Shown one piece after another: positions 1-8,484 of a DNA stretch of 39,625 nucleotides. The translations under genes and the position numbers were made by a program. Below the pieces are notes generated by a model. It worked only from the letters and a program-made list of their open reading frames with translations. It did no database searches and had not been told where the DNA came from. Source of the stretch: a virus (taxonomy: Duplodnaviria; Heunggongvirae; Uroviricota; Caudoviricetes); IMG/VR virus record IMGVR_UViG_2545824712_000011; one strand, written 5' to 3'. The number at the start of each line of letters is the position of its first letter. Positions within the stretch are counted from its first letter, which is position 1.

Positions 1-327
1 CTACTTTTTTGCACGCCCATATTCAACGGCTTCTTTAAGGAGTTCATTTTCCATCGTTTTTTTGCCGAGCAGGCGCTGGAGTTCTTTAATCTGCTTCATG
101 GCAGCAGCAAGTTCAGAGGCAGGAACGACCTGTTCTCCTGCGGCCACAGCAGTAAGACTTCCCTCCTGGTATTGCTTGCGCCAGAGAAATAACTGGCTGG
201 CTGCCACACCGTGTTGCCGGGCAACAAGGGAGACCGTCATTCCCGGTTCAAAACTCTGCTGAACAATAGCGATCTTTTCCTGTGTAGTACGCCGTCTGCG
301 TTTCTCCGGTCCTAAGACATCAATCAT
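1..327 (-). CDS. insC: IS2 transposase OrfA (InsC); 3' end coincides with window edge
   Basis: Translation [56 protein letters not shown]... matches IS2 InsC as recalled; A6G slippery run sits just before the apparent TAG at the window edge. Confidence 0.85.
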
Positions 328-418
328 CTGCTCTCCAATGACTAGTCTAAAAACTAGTATTAAGACTATCACTTATTTAAGTGATATTGGTTGTCTGGAG
401 ATTCAGGGGGCCAGTCTA
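1..418 (-). mobile_element. IS2 (IS3 family) terminal segment; element continues beyond window start
   Basis: 381-418 is the reverse complement of the IS2 end TAGACTGGCCCCCTGAATCTCCAGACAACCAATATCAC; followed by IS2 orfA reading toward the window start. Confidence 0.9.
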
Positions 419-2217
419 GATGCCTGATGTAATGCTGAAAGTTTAGTGCCATTAGAGCCTGTCTGATAACCAATACCTGTATGTTCACCATAGAATCTTG
501 AATGATATTTACTCCCTCTAACGTAGTCATCAGCGATAGAACTACCGCTTGTTTGCTTTATGAATTTGAACCCATCACAAATATCAAACCCACGGCATTG
601 ATACTGGCTTAACTCGTCAGATGTATTCTTAAGAAGGGTAATCCCTTTGTGTGCCCGAACATATCCAGATGATATCCTAACTTGTGTTGGTCCATTCTGT
701 TCATTAGTTGGCAATGATATGAAGTGCGTCACACCTACCGCATTGTCTTCCTTAAGATCGCATGAGATATTTGACAACTCCATTAGCGAAGTAGCATCCT
801 GCTGAACTATATCTGTAAAATCTAAGCAATGATCTCCTGTGACACCCTCAATACCTAGACCATCAATACTTAAAGATCTAAATTGATAGAACTTATGTGG
901 TAATTTACATCCATCCGACGCGATATTTGTGGCCTTAACATACATCAATGGGTAAGGACTGTTCACCGGATCATATGTTGTTCTATCAATAGCCGCGCCC
1001 CACAGATATCCGTAGTCACAATGCCTTGCCCAGTTGGAAGAGAATGTAGTAGATGTGCCAGCCAAACCGAAACCATAGATACAATCATATGCTTGGTTGT
1101 TTGTAACATTACTGACAAAGCATGATAAGGGAAGTGCAAATTTATAATGTAGAAATATGTTATTTTTAATATCATATTCACTACCACCGCCAAAAGTTTG
1201 TGTTTGACCAGAAATGACCAATGGGCTACCTGAATATTCATCGTCAGCGTTGCGAAAACACATATTCTTTACTTTAAGATTGTGCCCCCAACTTCCCATA
1301 ACAAAACCACCACTTCCTGATGTATAAACAATACTTTTTTGTGGATTAATCCCATATAGATTTAGACTAATCCCTTCCCATCTAAACTGGCTAATGTCAA
1401 TTTGAGTGTTACCAATATATATAGGCTGGTCTATGAAAACAGGAAGCTTAGTTAGATAAGCTTTATTAAGTGCTAATCCATCATTTGTTACACCTGTTAA
1501 ATCAACGCCACCCATGCTTGGCGCTCTAGGATACCCTGTGGCCTGAATAGTACTCCAGTCAATATATGGAGCATCCATCCACGCTCCAAACATACGTGGT
1601 GTTACGTACCCCTTACCTTGAAGATCACGTTTCCAGCGTTTACCACCCGCAGTGACAATGACCATGCCGTTATCATCTGCAGAAGTAGAATCTGTGAAAT
1701 CGGCCACAAACAGACCACCACCAGTATCACCTGATACTGTCGGCTTCATGCCTGTAGTGTGGAAGTCGACGAAAATCTTTTGCTGATCTCGCTCAGGCTC
1801 AATTGTCCTTAACATTGCTATATCAGGGCATGTCCCGATGTATTTAAGACCGTCTTCCCCTGATAGAGATACTTTAAGCTGATCAGGATCATATTTAAGA
1901 ACATTCGGAAAATAGAACTGCTGTGCACCATATGCATCATAAACAGCCATAGAATGGCCTTGCACAGTTACGAACTTGGCAATCTGTCCGTTATATACAG
2001 GGTAACCAGCAGCGTTAATGATTATTGGTTGCGAAACAGGAACATGAGAACCGTCTTCATTCTCTACATAAACCTGAATCCGGTTTTCAGGATTTACCGG
2101 GTCAGTGTCAATTTTCCCGATATAAATTTCGCCATTGGCTACGGCTTTAAAAGAACGCGCCATAGTGAAAAGTTGCGAAGGCATCGATACGATCACATTG
2201 GCTGTAATGTCTGTCAT
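403..2217 (-). CDS. Tailspike protein: P22/Sf6/HK620-type N-terminal head-binding domain plus divergent receptor-binding domain; 3' end replaced by IS2
   Basis: N-terminus [59 protein letters not shown]... matches tailspike head-binding domains; last four to five codons and the stop are IS2-derived (IS2 end at 418). Confidence 0.85.
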
Positions 2218-2317: not shown

Positions 2318-3253
2318 TCAGTAGTTATGTACTGAAGGAGGTAATTCTTTATTCTTAAGTCTCATCCATGCGGAAAGATTCGTTGGTCCGTCTGGCTCAT
2401 TGATATCAACATCGCGTGTGTGATTGATTAAAACGTCTCTCGCCATTCCGATAACATACGAGAATTCATGACCGTAGTCGTAGCATCTGCCGGAATAGTT
2501 CGATTGAATTTGTTTTAATGCCGGATACAGTTCGCGGAATAATGCCTGTGAGCGGTTAGCATAATCCCATAACCATACAAGGCTGTTTGCTTCTTTTGCA
2601 GAAAGCTCGTTGGTTTTCTTCTCTTGTTTGCCAATGAACTCACCTTCAAGTGGAACTCGAGCTGCAAGTGATAGTGCTTCGGTAAACTGCTCCTCACTGA
2701 TTTCTTTGTACGAACATCCAAAATGGGATTTCAGTGACGACCACATGGTGATCATCGCCTTAGCCTGTTTTTCTTTTGGCAGAGACTGACCGCGACTCAT
2801 GACGAGTTGTTTAATGGCTTCCTGCTGTTCAGTGGTGATTTTACCCGGCAACGCCTTTTTAGCTTTGCGTGGGTTAACTACATGACCTTTAGTCCAGTAG
2901 TCATGCAGCACGCTAAAGCATTCTTCCTGGTACTGAATCAGTTTATCACGGATGTCAGCACGAACTTTCTCAGGGTTGATGCTGAACAGCCATCCATTTA
3001 ACTTCTTCAGCGGGATGCATAAAAGCTTACGTAACTTGCCATCAGCAGCAACCATAGAGATATCTCTACAGTTGAATTTGTCCTTCATTTTACGCAACTT
3101 AACAGATTGACCAGTCCAGTCGATACCAATGTTTTCCACAATTTGACGCATCGCTACATAAGTCACTCCGGCAGCCACAGCGGTTAAAATCTGCTGACCA
3201 TTGAAAGGCACGTAAGAGGTGTTCACTGCTTCTAAAATTGCTATACTATTCAT
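2318..3253 (-). CDS. ant: Antirepressor Ant
   Basis: Starts [21 protein letters not shown]... at ATG 3253 with GGAG upstream; position downstream of arc as in P22 immI. Confidence 0.8.
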
Positions 3254-3321
3254 GTTGGTTTTTCTCCACGAATTTACCGACAACCGAAGCCCTGACTGTT
3301 CCCGCAGTTGGGGCTTCAACT

Positions 3322-3483
3322 TTACGCGCCAATGCGCCCTTCCTTCTTAAAGCTGTCCATTACTCTCTGATAAATCTCAGAGTTAACAGACCGACCATTC
3401 TCTTCCGCCACCTTGCGTACCAAATCCAATACTTCTTTAGGCCACCGCAAATTGAACTGCGGCATTTTTCTTGCGCCTTGCAT
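3322..3483 (-). CDS. arc: Arc repressor (ribbon-helix-helix)
   Basis: 53 aa [53 protein letters not shown], near-identical to P22 Arc as recalled. Confidence 0.9.
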
Positions 3484-3576
3484 ATTCCACTCCATTCCAT
3501 TAAATGATAGCACCGTACTACTATTGAAAGCGTACTACTACCGTTCTAGCATGTCAACAAATAACAGGAGAGCGAC
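3484..3576. promoter_or_regulatory. immI divergent promoter/operator region (Pant / Pmnt)
   Basis: Intergenic between divergent arc and mnt; contains direct repeat GTACTACTA x2 (CCGTACTACTATTGAAAGCGTACTACTACCG). Confidence 0.55.
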
Positions 3577-3816
3577 GTGGCTAGAAACGATCCACAATTT
3601 AACGTAAGAATGCCAAGTGAAATCAAGCAGCAGCTTACTCACATTGCGGCAACAAACAGGCGCTCTATCAATGCTGAAATCATAGCTGCAATACAGCTAT
3701 GGATTAAGATTAACAGAGAAAAGGTCATACCATCGACATCTCAAGATCTCACAAAAACAGAGAAGGAAGCAATGGATATTGCAATTAGCGTACTTAAGAA
3801 GATTCGAGGCCAATAA
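3577..3816 (+). CDS. mnt: Mnt-like ribbon-helix-helix repressor
   Basis: MARNDPQFNVRMPSEIKQQL... resembles P22 Mnt N-terminus; GTG start with AGGAG 7 nt upstream; divergent from arc. Confidence 0.75.
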   Translation: MARNDPQFNVRMPSEIKQQLTHIAATNRRSINAEIIAAIQLWIKINREKVIPSTSQDLTKTEKEAMDIAISVLKKIRGQ

Positions 3817-4163
3817 TGAGCAGTAAGGAGCAATACTTAAAAGTTACTTTTGAGTCTTTTAGTAATTACTTGACTTCATTCAAAAAAACTTATGTATGCC
3901 CAATATGCAGCAATACAAACTGGACTCTTTTAGCACCTGAGCATCTTAAAAAAGATGATGGTGTTGAAGTTATAGGCCCATCCATACCAGGTAAAAGCTT
4001 GCCTAATAATCCTGTTAATCAAGATACTTATAGCAACGATAGTCTTAACATGGTAGCCATGCAATGCACCACTTGCGGTTTCTTCCACTTTTTTAGTTTA
4101 AACAAAGTTAGTGAAAATATCTCTTCTGGAAAATTCGTAAAGGGTGATGGAGATAATGTTTGA
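3816..4163 (+). CDS. Hypothetical zinc-ribbon protein (CxxC...CxxC), first gene of AT-rich cassette
   Basis: ATG overlaps mnt stop (TAATG); CPIC at residues 28-31 and CTTC at 84-87; about 30-35% G+C by rough count. Confidence 0.6.
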   Translation: MSSKEQYLKVTFESFSNYLTSFKKTYVCPICSNTNWTLLAPEHLKKDDGVEVIGPSIPGKSLPNNPVNQDTYSNDSLNMVAMQCTTCGFFHFFSLNKVSENISSGKFVKGDGDNV

Positions 4164-4656
4164 CCAACATGTTCACAATAAATCACCTAGTATTTATGGA
4201 GATGCTCAAAGCCAACATGAAAACCTTGACTTTGACAAATCGTTATGGAGTTCAATAGAAAACGCTAAATATTCAGAGTATTACAGACCAACTGACAGAA
4301 ATCCGTCAAAGGAACCACAAATATTTAGCCTACAAGAAGAGCAACACAAAGAAGAAGGTCGTGATACCGTGAAACGTTTAGAGCTATACGGGGTTGCAGT
4401 TGCTATCATTGGTTCTATCGTTGCCGCCACATGGACGATTCGAGGCACTATAGATGATAAAGTTGAATCATCACGACAAGAGCTAACAGGAAACATCCAA
4501 ACCAGTAAGGCAGAGATAATGGCTACTATCCAAAACAACCAATCAGTATTACAGTCAAGGATTGATAACACTGATCAAAAATTAGACTCAACAAACCAAT
4601 CTCTTTATAAGGTATTGGCTATATTAGAGTCTCAAAAAGACAAACGTTCTCAATAG
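4144..4656 (+). CDS. Hypothetical single-pass membrane protein with C-terminal coiled-coil-like domain
   Basis: Start overlaps upstream gene (alternative ATG at 4156 overlapping its TGA); hydrophobic segment LELYGVAVAIIGSIVAATWTI; polar heptad-like C-terminal region. Confidence 0.6.
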   Translation: MMEIMFDQHVHNKSPSIYGDAQSQHENLDFDKSLWSSIENAKYSEYYRPTDRNPSKEPQIFSLQEEQHKEEGRDTVKRLELYGVAVAIIGSIVAATWTIRGTIDDKVESSRQELTGNIQTSKAEIMATIQNNQSVLQSRIDNTDQKLDSTNQSLYKVLAILESQKDKRSQ

Positions 4657-4677
4657 TTTCTTGATTTATTACCTATA

Positions 4678-4712
4678 GCTGCATGATTGATGTCTGTTGA
4701 AAATCATGCAGC
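4678..4712. repeat. Perfect 11-bp inverted repeat GCTGCATGATT-N13-AATCATGCAGC
   Basis: Read directly; lies between second and third cassette genes, no T-tract after it. Confidence 0.8.
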
Positions 4713-4736
4713 ATTGATAAATCTAAGGAGATCGGC

Positions 4737-5057
4737 ATGTACATATCGCTCTCTACCATTTTTTTCATCTGCTTAGCTATTTGGCTTTTAAGAATATGGC
4801 AGGATTGCTCTGTCAGCCATGCTGCTGCGGTGAGAAATAAAAACGCCCTCATAAAAGAAGCTGAAAACGTTGTCTTATCAATGGATCACCTTTCATGGAC
4901 CGAGATGACTACAGGGCAACAAGAGGTTTATGAGTGTGCGATTGAGCGGTTAAGGCTGCTTAAATCGTACAAAAAGAACCACGCTCCCGACTCATTCCCA
5001 TTCCTGAAAGAATGGCCGAGATGGTATGACCCGAAAAAAGCAACCATCAACCGCTAA
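4737..5057 (+). CDS. Hypothetical small membrane-anchored protein
   Basis: AAGGAG 8 nt upstream of ATG; N-terminal hydrophobic segment MYISLSTIFFICLAIWLLRIW; stop 8 bp from convergent gp16 stop. Confidence 0.55.
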   Translation: MYISLSTIFFICLAIWLLRIWQDCSVSHAAAVRNKNALIKEAENVVLSMDHLSWTEMTTGQQEVYECAIERLRLLKSYKKNHAPDSFPFLKEWPRWYDPKKATINR

Positions 5058-5065
5058 CCAACTTT

Positions 5066-7069
5066 TTACTGCTGGGCTTGCTCACTTGAAGCCTGAATTA
5101 GAGGTGTAAGAGTTTCAGATACCCGTCTGATCGCTCTATCATAAGCAGTACTTCCTTTTGGCGTGTTTGCTAACTTTAGTAATGCGTTCCTCATCGCGCG
5201 TGACTCATAGCCCCTGCCAGCCATACCGATACCAGCTCCAACTGCCGCAACTTTTGCAAACATTGGATTTGTAACAGACGCAAGAGCTGTTATCAGCGCT
5301 GCTGGACCAGCTACCATTTGCCCTGTTAGTGGGCTTGCGGCAGCAGTAGCTGCCTGTCTAGTGGAATCAAGATATTTCATTATCCCATCAAGCTGTTTCC
5401 CATGCTCTCCTCTGAAGAACGTCTCAGCCTGCTTCCGATTCCTTTTCATTTCATTAATAAACTTCTCAACGCTAAGCTTTCCTGAATCGCTTGTCGCCTT
5501 ATCCATTGCACGCTGAACAAGTGCTGCTCTAGCATTTTGACGCCCACTATCATCAAGCAATCGATAAAGTTGCGCCCTTTCCGCTGGGCTTTGGCTGAAT
5601 ACTAGTTTAGTGACATCTTCTGGCGTTGTTTTACCACTCTGAATAGCTTTTTGGACACGTGTATTGCTCATCATGTCGTTGAACTTTGCCCAAGAACGAT
5701 CAACACGCGACATGTTTTGCGCTTCCTTCGCACCTAGTTTTGCGCCAACCGCTTTTTTCATGTCTGTTGTGTATGCGTTATAAACAGACTGCGCAGCTTT
5801 CTCCAGCGTATCTCTATCGACCTCGTCAGGTGCTGCCATAAAGCGCTTACGTAAGTTTGTACGGTTTTCTCTAGCTAATTGCAGGTTATTTGGACCGCTG
5901 GTGATGTCATTTCTAAACTGTTGAAGGACAGAAACAGCTGAGCGGTCTTGCGATACTCCTGGGCGAGTTAACTTGGAAATCTGCTCATCAATTGCTTTCA
6001 CTGTTCCAGTGATGTCAACAGGAGTATCCCCCATCAAACTGATGATCCTGTCGTACCGCTTGCCAGCAGCCTGAATAAATTGCTGCTGACCACGAGTAGC
6101 TGATTGGTAAAGTTGTGCGTCAGATATTCCACCAACATTATCGCTAAATGTTCTAACTAAATCTTCCCTGGCCTTTTGCTGTGCATTTCTTATCCCACCT
6201 GTTCCGGCTATTGGGATTCGCTCAGCCATAGCTCGTGCTTGCTTACCAATATTTGTTCCCGGTTCCACAAGATCTGTTGTCATCAGTGGCAAGTTGTTCT
6301 GCTTGGCAAAGTCAATCTGAGCTTGTTTTTCAGGAGCAATCTTACCCATAGCAGAACGAGACACTGCGCTTGCGGTGTTTTCTACACCCTTTAGTACCCC
6401 ACCAAGACCAGCAGAAATTGCAGTTTGAACTGGATTAACATTCTCACCGCCAGCGATCTTAGTGGCACCCTGTAAAGCTAAATCAGTAGCGCCTGATTTT
6501 AGTGTTGCACCTACAACAGACGCAGCTCTACCTGCTGGAGTGAATGCAAGAGCATTTGCCAAGAATGACGTTATATCCTGCGGTGACAAACCAGGCTTGT
6601 TAAGTGCATATTCCCCTGAAGGAAGGGTGACTATGGAATTTCCCTTCTCATCCTTCCGGATTTTCCCGCCAATACTTTGCAGTATTTTCTCCTGTGAAGC
6701 GTCGGAACCAAATAGCTGCCCCAATCCAGCACGCAGCGCATCAGTGCTTAAGCTATTAAGCTCTGGAGCAGACCCAACATTTTGCAGTCTCTCCATTTCT
6801 GGTGTCATTCGGCTTTCACCGGTAACGGCATCGCGCATTGCAGCACCTAAAACAGCCCCTTGCTCAGCAGAGCGATCTAGTCCTTCCTTCTGCTGAGTGG
6901 CAAGCTGTGCATATCCTGATGCAAGTGAGTTGTCTGCTGGCGATTGCTGAACACCTTGTTGTGTTGGTGCTGACTGACCAGCAAAATACTCATCAATGGC
7001 GGTGCCAATATCTTCGGTGCTCGTACCATCAGGAAAGGTAAATGTCTTACCGTTTGCAGTTACTTTCAT
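5066..7069 (-). CDS. Ejection (DNA transfer) protein, P22 gp16-like
   Basis: [29 protein letters not shown]... and gene order gp7-gp20-gp16 as in P22; ATG overlaps gp20 stop. Confidence 0.75.
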   Translation of the reverse strand: MKVTANGKTFTFPDGTSTEDIGTAIDEYFAGQSAPTQQGVQQSPADNSLASGYAQLATQQKEGLDRSAEQGAVLGAAMRDAVTGESRMTPEMERLQNVGSAPELNSLSTDALRAGLGQLFGSDASQEKILQSIGGKIRKDEKGNSIVTLPSGEYALNKPGLSPQDITSFLANALAFTPAGRAASVVGATLKSGATDLALQGATKIAGGENVNPVQTAISAGLGGVLKGVENTASAVSRSAMGKIAPEKQAQIDFAKQNNLPLMTTDLVEPGTNIGKQARAMAERIPIAGTGGIRNAQQKAREDLVRTFSDNVGGISDAQLYQSATRGQQQFIQAAGKRYDRIISLMGDTPVDITGTVKAIDEQISKLTRPGVSQDRSAVSVLQQFRNDITSGPNNLQLARENRTNLRKRFMAAPDEVDRDTLEKAAQSVYNAYTTDMKKAVGAKLGAKEAQNMSRVDRSWAKFNDMMSNTRVQKAIQSGKTTPEDVTKLVFSQSPAERAQLYRLLDDSGRQNARAALVQRAMDKATSDSGKLSVEKFINEMKRNRKQAETFFRGEHGKQLDGIMKYLDSTRQAATAAASPLTGQMVAGPAALITALASVTNPMFAKVAAVGAGIGMAGRGYESRAMRNALLKLANTPKGSTAYDRAIRRVSETLTPLIQASSEQAQQ

Positions 7070-8484
7070 CATTCCACCGTAAATTGAATGCCTGATTTTG
7101 AGGTATATGATCCAACCTGACTCCGTGGTTCTCCTGAAGGTGTCGAATCTTGTGCTGGCGCTGCGTCAGTATTCATTGACATATACCGCTTAACGGCACT
7201 CCCCAATGATTCACCTTTTTTAACATCCAACCCCAATATCTGACCGCCATTACGCGATTGTCCAGGGTTGCCATTCGCGCTCATCCACTCGGCTTTAAAC
7301 TCATTAAACTGCGCGTTTCGTCGCTCAAGGTTTGCCATTGCATCAAGCCATCTTGCGACCGTCTCAGGGTTATCCATGTCAGTTGGCGCCCCCTGTCTAA
7401 CGATCTCAACGTCTTTATCCGTTGCTGGGCCGGGAGGTAGGAATTTAAGAACCTGACTGTTAACAAGGGCATTTTGGCGAATGCGCAAATCACGCAATGT
7501 CGTATCGCTTCCGGTAAGTTTTGCGAACATGTTCTGTGCGTTACCGAACAAACCTGTCGTTGGTTTTTCTGCTCTGAACTGTTGAGCAAGCGCACTCATG
7601 GAATTGGCTGAGTTTGATGATGCTGTGGCATTGTTTACAGCCGTCTCGATTCCTTTTTCCATGTTTACTGACAGCTTAGGTGCTTCGCTAATCAACTGCT
7701 GAGCCTTTTCCTGCGCTTGCTGCATCTTAAACCCGAACTCTTGCTGATCCAGAGCCAAGCGTTGTGCTGCGATATTGTGCCCAGTCATTGCTGACTGATA
7801 GGAAAGGTTTTGCCCTCTCGCCTGAAGTGCTTCACCAGCCTGATTGCTGCGGATTGTCTCTGCCAGCCTGCCTCGGTCAATTTCACGACCAGCCATCTTA
7901 TCCTGAACAGCAAACGCCTTTTCTGGTCCAAGCGCACCGAGAGACATAGTAGTCAGCATGTGTGATAGCTGCTCTGGATTCTGGATACCTGTCTGAATCA
8001 TCCAGTCAGCATTAGCACCAACGCGATTTAACCTGTCCTTGTTGTCAGTAATGAATTTACTGTAGGCTTCCGGCCCCTGAGAAAGAGCGACGTTAGCCCT
8101 CATGGCTAAATCGCCCATATCGTTGCGTTGCTGATCATTAAGACCGGAAAACGCCTGTTGTGCCTGTGCAACAAACGCTGGATTTTCCTGGGCAAACTTA
8201 AATAGTCCCGATGGATCACCAGAAGCCCATGCATCAGCGTGAACCTTATTGAACGCACTAATAGCTTTCTGTTGCTGTTCCTGATTGTAAATATCAGCAA
8301 CTCCAGCCAGACCACGTAACGCGGTCAGGCCAACGTTATTTGCACCTGAGCGAGCCAGTTCATTGTTTTCGCGGATCAGACCAAGCGTTGCGTTAATGTC
8401 GCTTGCCTTTGGCGCATTCTCATTTTGCGTACCGATGCCAGCCAGAAAACCACCAGAATTAATACCCTGTTGCCACGTAGCCAT
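7069..8484 (-). CDS. Ejection protein, P22 gp20-like
   Basis: 471 aa, same length and position as P22 gp20. Confidence 0.75.

Follow-up and report, generated by a model that had tools for sequence, protein, structure and literature searches.

The 39,625-nucleotide (nt) stretch of DNA analyzed here (IMG/VR virus record IMGVR_UViG_2545824712_000011; "the window" hereafter) is a P22-like (Lederbergvirus) prophage, and this work concerns the three open reading frames (ORFs) that lie on its + strand between the repressor gene mnt and gene 16 (Table 1). An original prediction had described them as a three-gene, AT-rich cassette coupled to mnt in the place where P22 carries sieA, and as a candidate for exclusion or abortive infection. 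The three genes were confirmed at the positions then given, as was the slot: ORF1-3 occupy the orf59a/sieA interval of P22, between homologs of P22 genes 16 and 9, where the P22 annotation has mnt, orf59a, a terminator, PsieA, and sieA ahead of gene 16. The single cassette did not hold. We found that the region consists of two independent modules, namely, a pair formed by ORF1 and ORF2 that recurs behind prophage repressor genes, and ORF3, which is uncoupled from ORF2 and travels independently of the pair.

Table 1. Features of the mnt-gene 16 region and its surroundings, in window coordinates (aa, amino acids; SD, Shine-Dalgarno sequence; TM, transmembrane).
Feature	Position	Strand	Description
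tailspike	403-2217	-	
ant	2318-3319	-	
sar antisense RNA	3254-3321	+	Rfam RF00262, 94 bits, E = 3e-20; overlaps arc/ant junction
arc	3322-3513	-	
Candidate Pmnt	3524-3552	+	Promoter-like TTGAAA-17-TAGCAT 5' of mnt (consensus scan); placed like Pmnt in the P22 annotation
mnt	3577-3816	+	Mnt-type Arc-family repressor gene, 79 aa, GTG start; RefSeq WP_000113457
ORF1	3816-4163	+	115 aa, CxxC...CxxC zinc-ribbon-type, acidic C-terminal tail; phrog_4293; WP_024203682
ORF2	4156-4656	+	166 aa, predicted bitopic: disordered N-tail, one TM helix, long amphipathic helix; phrog_24865; WP_024203681
ORF2 in-frame GTG (codon 72)	4369-4371	+	Candidate internal start; short TM-plus-helix isoform
ORF2 predicted TM helix	4384-4440	+	Residues 77-95 from ATG 4156, LYGVAVAIIGSIVAATWTI; Kyte-Doolittle 19-residue maximum 1.92
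ORF2 conserved C-terminal helix	4441-4653	+	About 70 residues, hydrophobic positions every 11 residues
Inverted repeat	4678-4712	+	Perfect 11 bp, GCTGCATGATT / AATCATGCAGC, 13-nt loop; no T-run 3'
ORF3	4737-5057	+	106 aa, N-terminal TM helix (residues 3-21), conserved C-terminal domain; phrog_10450; WP_000275950
Gene 16	5066-7072	-	Genes 20 and 7 next in order

The ATG of ORF1 at 3816 and the TAA stop of mnt have one base in common (TAATG), as had been noted earlier. The ORF1 product lacks any hydrophobic segment and matches phrog_4293 (E = 4.7e-31), which PHROG annotates as "unknown function." Its predicted CxxC...CxxC pattern is formed by Cys28, Cys31, Cys84, and Cys87, all of them invariant across 15 family members. 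This family is small, with 16 representatives found among 1.84 billion proteins in an exhaustive HMMER search, and has a common layout of an N-terminal helix (F..F..YL), C(P)xC...W.L, a variable insert, M.C..CG[YF]...F, and an acidic tail. A zinc ribbon is made of two CxxC knuckles that supply four zinc ligands, with a beta strand after each. In the single-sequence model of ORF1 (predicted local distance difference test score, pLDDT, 48.7), strands predicted at residues 36-39, 79-84, and 90-94 flank the knuckles. These family features fit a zinc ribbon, and ORF1 may bind zinc. When the family profile was compared with the PDB, the best matches were generic zinc ribbons (L44e and Churchill among them; E = 0.02-0.07), none of them significant. 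The ORF1 query also aligns in 4-5 separate stretches to each of two longer proteins, P0033 (388 aa) and P0036 (276 aa), which suggests that both contain tandem repeats of the zinc-knuckle unit.

ORF2 matches phrog_24865 (E = 1.6e-116), another PHROG of "unknown function." It had been proposed as a 170-aa membrane protein with a coiled-coil-like C-terminal domain whose start overlaps the ORF1 stop. The overlap exists, and the single TM helix and the helical C-terminus are likewise predicted here; the length is probably different. The most likely start is the ATG at 4156, which gives 166 aa and an 8-nt overlap with ORF1 (ATGTTTGA) and is preferred because it is the RefSeq start and fits the homolog alignment, while the GTG at 4144 that would give 170 aa is less likely. 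The protein has only one hydrophobic stretch, and the TM helix terminates in a conserved [AS]W[TA]I (ATWTI in most members). In an AlphaFold2 model built from seven sequences, residues 72-169 of the 170-aa form make up one continuous helix, with pLDDT of approximately 90-97 over most of it, and the N-terminal ~70 residues are disordered. The best hydrophobic period of the helix is 3.60-3.68 in all 11 family members analyzed, and ORF2 of the window is longer than its lambdoid homologs by exactly one 11-residue unit. Repeats of this length are characteristic of coiled coils that are straight or right-handed, as well as of amphipathic helices at membrane surfaces. Conserved motifs of the family include EFWLG, GATWTIS, and SRQELxGNIQ. 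The ratio of nonsynonymous to synonymous substitution rates (dN/dS) is 0.11-0.21 in the TM segment and the following helix, and 0.32-0.79 in the variable N-tail.

A second start within ORF2 may also be used. A methionine approximately 11 codons before the TM helix is nearly invariant in 10 ORF2 homologs (from loci L004-L018 and L023), and the window has GTG at this position. A purine run resembling an SD sequence precedes the internal Met/GTG in 8 of the 11 loci (duplex energies from -5.5 to -11.8 kcal/mol; -5.5 in the window), and in these it equals or exceeds the one at the annotated start. An internal start that yields a short isoform, in the manner of dual-start holins or P22 sieB/esc, is a speculative reading of these patterns.

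The two genes form a strict pair. Each of the 18 loci with an ORF1 homolog has an ORF2 homolog directly 3' of it, and the two genes overlap by 8-26 nt. On lambdoid contigs, the ORF2 homologs have 31-39% identity, and their start is overlapped by a 125-aa gene whose product is 38% identical to ORF1. Scans with the ORF1 family added nine loci from viral contigs and one from species-representative genomes (Klebsiella spallanzanii), and the ORF2-family scan of the species-representative genomes confirmed nothing; in a word-indexed protein search, ORF1, ORF2, and ORF3 retrieved 1, 6, and 14 clusters, respectively. Pairwise identities within the ORF1 and ORF2 families are correlated (r = 0.91), and dN/dS values are 0.07-0.42 in homolog pairs of both. 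ORF1 and ORF2 are therefore real genes under purifying selection.

The location of the pair is as constant as its composition, being always directly 3' of a prophage repressor gene. In the window this gene is mnt, the product of which matches Pfam Arc (E = 4.8e-13) and is 47.5% identical to P22 Mnt across the first 40 residues; among complete E. coli genomes, the present mnt allele was seen only alongside ORF1-2. The repressors ahead of the pair in loci L004-L018 have a helix-turn-helix (HTH) plus Peptidase_S24 architecture and belong to several sequence types, and that of K. spallanzanii is HTH-only. Every lambdoid locus has cro (-), a cI-type repressor gene (+), the ORF1 homolog, and the ORF2 homolog, with N further on. 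The lambdoid pair is followed immediately by a GC-rich stem and a T-run, which is a canonical intrinsic terminator at the corresponding position, such that the layout is cI-A-B-terminator-N. This cI-N interval, which is transcribed from the repressor promoter, is a recognized hotspot and the site of rexAB and bstA (PMC8585504). The entire 1.5-kb region of the window is present at ≥99% identity in 41 of 5,426 complete E. coli genomes, and Escherichia phages N7 and HZ41 are identical (100%) to window positions 3577-5065; the N7 copies of all three genes are annotated as hypothetical proteins. For the pair of locus L010 (L010:5001-5838), a megablast search against the complete E. coli genomes gave no match. 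Protein clusters of the L010 type nonetheless have members recorded on E. coli contigs of >4.5 Mb.

The sar RNA and the promoter-like site ahead of mnt are present, and therefore the region is a canonical immI. The layout also agrees with the expectation that the genes are expressed from Pmnt: the promoter-like site lies upstream of mnt, the start and stop codons of mnt, ORF1, and ORF2 overlap, and the consensus scan found no promoter-like site 3' of the Pmnt candidate, the ORF2-ORF3 interval included. From this arrangement, mnt is predicted to be the first gene of an operon with ORF1-2, and we infer that Pmnt drives mnt, ORF1, and ORF2 in a lysogen, and probably ORF3 as well.

ORF3 has a history of its own. 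As proposed, its product is predicted to be anchored at the N-terminus by a hydrophobic helix. The gene is preceded by an SD (AAGGAG at 4725-4730), and the protein matches phrog_10450 (E = 3.2e-52; "unknown function"), a family with the conserved domain LIxEAE...LSW..M..Q....CAIERL..L..K. It is found without ORF1-2 in 19 further complete-genome records (97-99% identity), in which the match is limited to window positions 4718-5065, and more divergent homologs, 65-77% identical, are likewise unaccompanied by ORF1-2 in additional P22-like contigs. In the opposite direction, no ORF3 homolog is located near the ORF1-2 homologs of the 17 other loci. A comparison of complete E. coli genomes places a mosaic junction at ~4718, just past the hairpin in the 80-nt spacer between ORF2 and ORF3. 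A single three-gene cassette fails because this hairpin-bearing spacer and the junction separate ORF3 from the pair. In a side observation, an extended fold of the hairpin pairs with the SD region of ORF3 (z = -2.5).

While ORF3 stays beside gene 16, the cargo toward mnt varies. In locus L002, mnt and a 193-aa phrog_23516 protein precede ORF3; in L003, a cI-like HTH plus S24 repressor takes the place of mnt; in L024, mnt is followed by another two-gene pair (zinc-ribbon/XhlA-like); in L026, by a secreted 105-aa protein and a P63C gene; and in L025, mnt is directly ahead of ORF3 at a distance of 45 nt, which suggests that ORF3 too is read from Pmnt. The mnt-ORF3 interval is thus a cargo hotspot of P22-like prophages that is sometimes empty. 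A distant ORF3 relative is gp49 of phage mEp043, which matches phrog_10450 (E = 2.5e-54) and is located directly behind cI and ahead of PL/N. Judging from these gene orders, the ORF3 family occupies slots that are predicted to be expressed in lysogens.

Base composition follows the same division. The claim of AT-richness is correct for ORF1 (34.8% G+C) and ORF2 (37.7%) when compared with 46.8% for the window, but not for ORF3, which has 43.6% (50.5% at third codon positions, GC3) and is ordinary in this respect. ORF1-2 is the 841-nt stretch of lowest G+C in the 39.6-kb window, and its composition was counted for horizontal acquisition of the pair.

The view that the three proteins are uncharacterized was borne out, as profile, fold, and literature searches gave no known family. 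ORF1, ORF2, and ORF3 had no match in Pfam and no significant match in the PDB. BLASTP of ORF1-3 against P22 SieA gave no alignment at E ≤ 10, and against orf59a likewise nothing. Neither the searchable literature nor the DefensePredictor supplements contained the protein accessions or the sequence motifs.

At its 3' end, the tailspike gene adjoins a partial ORF (window 1-372) whose translation was judged by eye to resemble orfA of an IS3-family transposase (IS, insertion sequence). The match between N7 and the window begins only at 1874, and the receptor-binding part of the tailspike (403-1873) is of a non-N7 type. A truncation of the tailspike by the IS fragment was considered and dropped, since the N7 comparison shows only a differing receptor-binding part.

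The phrog_4293 family has a sister branch with a different partner. In locus L024, the first gene of the pair encodes a 121-aa phrog_4293 protein (E = 8.7e-29; hhalign against the ORF1 family, E = 1.6e-5), and the second encodes a 110-aa protein in which a C-terminal TM helix comes after a coiled coil. This partner matches Pfam XhlA (E = 5.8e-5) at 23.6 bits, under the curated cut-off of 34.7, and also matches a holin-annotated PHROG (E = 5.4e-6) and a hemolysin-annotated PHROG. Three of the four sister-branch partners match XhlA (best E = 7.8e-7). Similar pairs occur in the Salmonella phages SPN3UB and 29485 and in the Klebsiella phage ST101-KPC2phi6.1. In these phages, which have an annotated tape-measure gene, the pair is part of an accessory cluster upstream of that gene (L027, which corresponds to SPN3UB gp19-gp28; L028; and L029). 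Arc-like regulators, antirepressors, lipoproteins, and small membrane proteins make up the remainder of the cluster, which has the appearance of an immI-plus-moron island within the tail gene region. A homology between ORF2 and the XhlA-like partners, suggested by the motifs RQEL.G and R.DK.D, was dropped after a profile-profile comparison (E = 0.03). From these predicted architectures, it is safe to say that the zinc-ribbon family has two kinds of partner, both of them small coiled-coil membrane proteins with a single TM pass.

Gene context and predicted architecture together make an anti-phage function expressed in the lysogen, of whatever kind, moderately probable. As a full account of the two modules, we favor one in which both are expressed behind mnt in the lysogen, with ORF1-2 acting in a RexAB-like manner and ORF3 in exclusion, although we would give this whole account slightly less than an even chance. 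Under this account, mnt, ORF1, and ORF2 would be carried by one Pmnt transcript with coupled translation. ORF2 would be anchored in the inner membrane via its one TM helix, and the amphipathic helix of ~70 residues would likely oligomerize. ORF1 would be a cytoplasmic zinc-ribbon protein that binds ORF2 as a sensor or inhibitor. A cue from a superinfecting phage would act through ORF1 on ORF2, which would then disturb the membrane much as holins or XhlA do, with the result that the infection aborts. ORF3 would be a separate, small single-pass protein of exclusion at the envelope level, in the position of sieA. The specific model of an ORF1 sensor with an ORF2 membrane effector is tentative, and we consider it possible rather than probable. 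A further extension is doubtful: ORF1-ORF2 may represent the founding members of a two-component abortive-infection family of temperate enterobacterial phages, in which a four-cysteine phrog_4293 sensor is wired into the operon of a cI, mnt, or HTH-only repressor with interchangeable small membrane effectors (ORF2-type or XhlA/holin-like), possibly with self-control by ORF2 isoforms as in sieB/esc.

Several results weigh against the favored account. PADLOC models of known defense systems gave no match to ORF1-3 at E ≤ 1. In the three phages named above, the pairs lie upstream of the tape-measure gene in the orientation of the tail genes rather than behind a repressor. The resemblance of ORF2 to the XhlA-like partners is weak (family against single sequence, P = 5e-4), the profile-profile comparison of the two families mentioned above was not significant (hhalign probability 1.7%), and neither ORF2 nor its nine homologs matched XhlA in Pfam. 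The Foldseek comparison of the ORF1 model with the PDB (best E = 0.55; Elf1-type zinc ribbons ranked first) is uninformative because the confidence of that model is low. Lysine plus arginine counts on the two sides of the ORF2 TM helix are 24 vs. 26 across the family, and the positive-inside rule is thus a tie. Finally, the hairpin after ORF2 has no T-run, and therefore read-through into ORF3 is possible and the end of the operon is uncertain.

Two other explanations, both unlikely in our view and to a similar degree, deserve consideration for the pair. In the first, ORF1-2 blocks DNA entry: ORF2 would be oriented N-in, with a periplasmic helix of ~10 nm that obstructs the conduit formed by the ejection proteins or the tape measure, in the way of the inner-membrane protein SieA, and ORF1 would only assist or regulate ORF2 from the cytoplasm. 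The location in the sieA slot, adjoining the ejection-protein genes, is consistent with this idea, and so is the finding that the post-TM helix is the most conserved part of ORF2. The topology is argued in both directions: in ORF2, the 70-residue N-tail without a signal peptide argues for an N-in, C-out orientation, whereas the coiled coil of the sister-branch partners precedes a C-terminal anchor and should be cytoplasmic, which by analogy argues for a cytoplasmic ORF2 helix. Entry blockers are usually single membrane proteins or lipoproteins. Characterized examples such as SieA need one protein, and a strictly kept zinc-ribbon partner would be left unexplained; ORF1-2 also has no likeness to SieA or to its motif FxRYPxEAxxFNK.

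In the second, the pair serves the prophage itself, either as a toxin/antidote-like addiction module or in the control of lysis timing or induction, with ORF2 as a holin/XhlA-like protein and ORF1 as its cytoplasmic inhibitor. RIII, an inhibitor of the T4 holin, provides a model for such a role of ORF1. The tight coupling and the 1:1 gene pair resemble toxin-antitoxin layouts, the sister-branch partners match XhlA and holin families, the pair is co-oriented with late genes in SPN3UB-type phages, and the conserved internal start candidate resembles those of dual-start holin/antiholin genes. However, P22-like phages have a complete lysis cassette elsewhere according to the P22 annotation, and the lysis/late region of the window has further ORFs. 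Placement in a repressor operon means lysogenic expression, when lysis must be silent, and the known occupants of such slots (rexAB, bstA, and sieA) are exclusion genes.

Lysogenic-conversion cargo unrelated to phages, with a role in envelope stress, colonization, or virulence modulation, is less likely still. Prophage morons in such slots can alter host traits, with bstA first tied to virulence phenotypes, and the cassette turns up frequently in isolates from cattle and humans, several of which have strain names in the style of the Centers for Disease Control and Prevention. Nevertheless, the proteins have no domains that suggest host-directed activity, and what the genes are associated with, in a variety of prophages and hosts, is the repressor operon and not a pathotype. 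The three-component system of the original prediction is the least credible explanation, because the adjacency of the three genes on one strand (in the window and in the 41 E. coli genomes) and the lack of a promoter-like site between ORF2 and ORF3 are contradicted by the separate distributions of ORF3 and ORF1-2, the changing upstream partners of ORF3 or mnt directly ahead of it, the mosaic junction, and the different G+C of ORF3.

Genes of repressor operons have repeatedly proved to be defense systems, as exemplified by rexAB, bstA, sieA, and nun, and ORF1-2 is a compact candidate that current defense-system models miss. Its signature, which combines strict pairing of a zinc ribbon and a membrane helix, gene overlap, and a repressor-adjacent location, can be tested, and its range covers P22-like prophages of E. 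coli and lambdoid prophages of Escherichia and Klebsiella. If active, the pair would add a new sensor-effector architecture and provide a small, tractable model of cytoplasmic control over a single-pass membrane effector. Moreover, the mnt-gene 16 interval is now mapped as a cargo slot with ORF3 as its fixed neighbor. Only 22 of the 66 sequenced P22-like phages carry sieA, and this map helps to read the approximately two-thirds that do not.

Among known systems, the closest parallel in layout is lambda RexAB. Both consist of two co-oriented genes directly 3' of the lysogenic repressor, with a terminator before PL/N in the lambdoid homologs (L004-L018), and both combine one predicted cytoplasmic and one membrane protein. 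RexA has ~279 aa and no zinc ribbon, and RexB has four TM helices, which differ from the four-cysteine, 115-aa ORF1 and from ORF2 with its single TM and long helix. There is no sequence similarity to RexAB and no PADLOC match, and the pair of the window is behind mnt in immI. BstA of prophage BTP1 is likewise encoded directly 3' of a prophage repressor, presumably under the same promoter, and is prophage-associated across Gram-negative bacteria (PMC8585504); it is, however, a single protein that localizes to phage DNA replication sites and has no similarity to ORF1 or ORF2.

P22 SieA shares with the three ORFs the slot between mnt and gene 16 and the direction of mnt, and ORF3 holds its gene 16-proximal place. 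SieA (types A, B, and C) resides in the inner membrane, is expressed in lysogens, and acts alone. It has several predicted TM segments and the FxRYPxEAxxFNK motif, whereas ORF2 and ORF3 have one hydrophobic segment each, ORF1 has none, and the motif is absent. T4 Sp and lactococcal Sie2009 are exclusion proteins of ~100 aa with one N-terminal TM helix that are expressed before superinfection, and ORF3 is similar to them when compared by architecture alone. ORF2 resembles XhlA (PF10779) and small holins as a small bitopic protein with a coiled-coil-like helix, but its TM segment comes before the long helix and the genes are outside the lysis cassette. The candidate internal start and two isoforms of ORF2 recall P22 SieB/Esc, annotated as such in P22, and the dual-start holin/antiholin genes, although in sequence ORF2 resembles neither SieB nor any known holin. 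Morons for defense or exclusion are well known as occupants of prophage repressor operons; the protein families and the architecture found here are undescribed.

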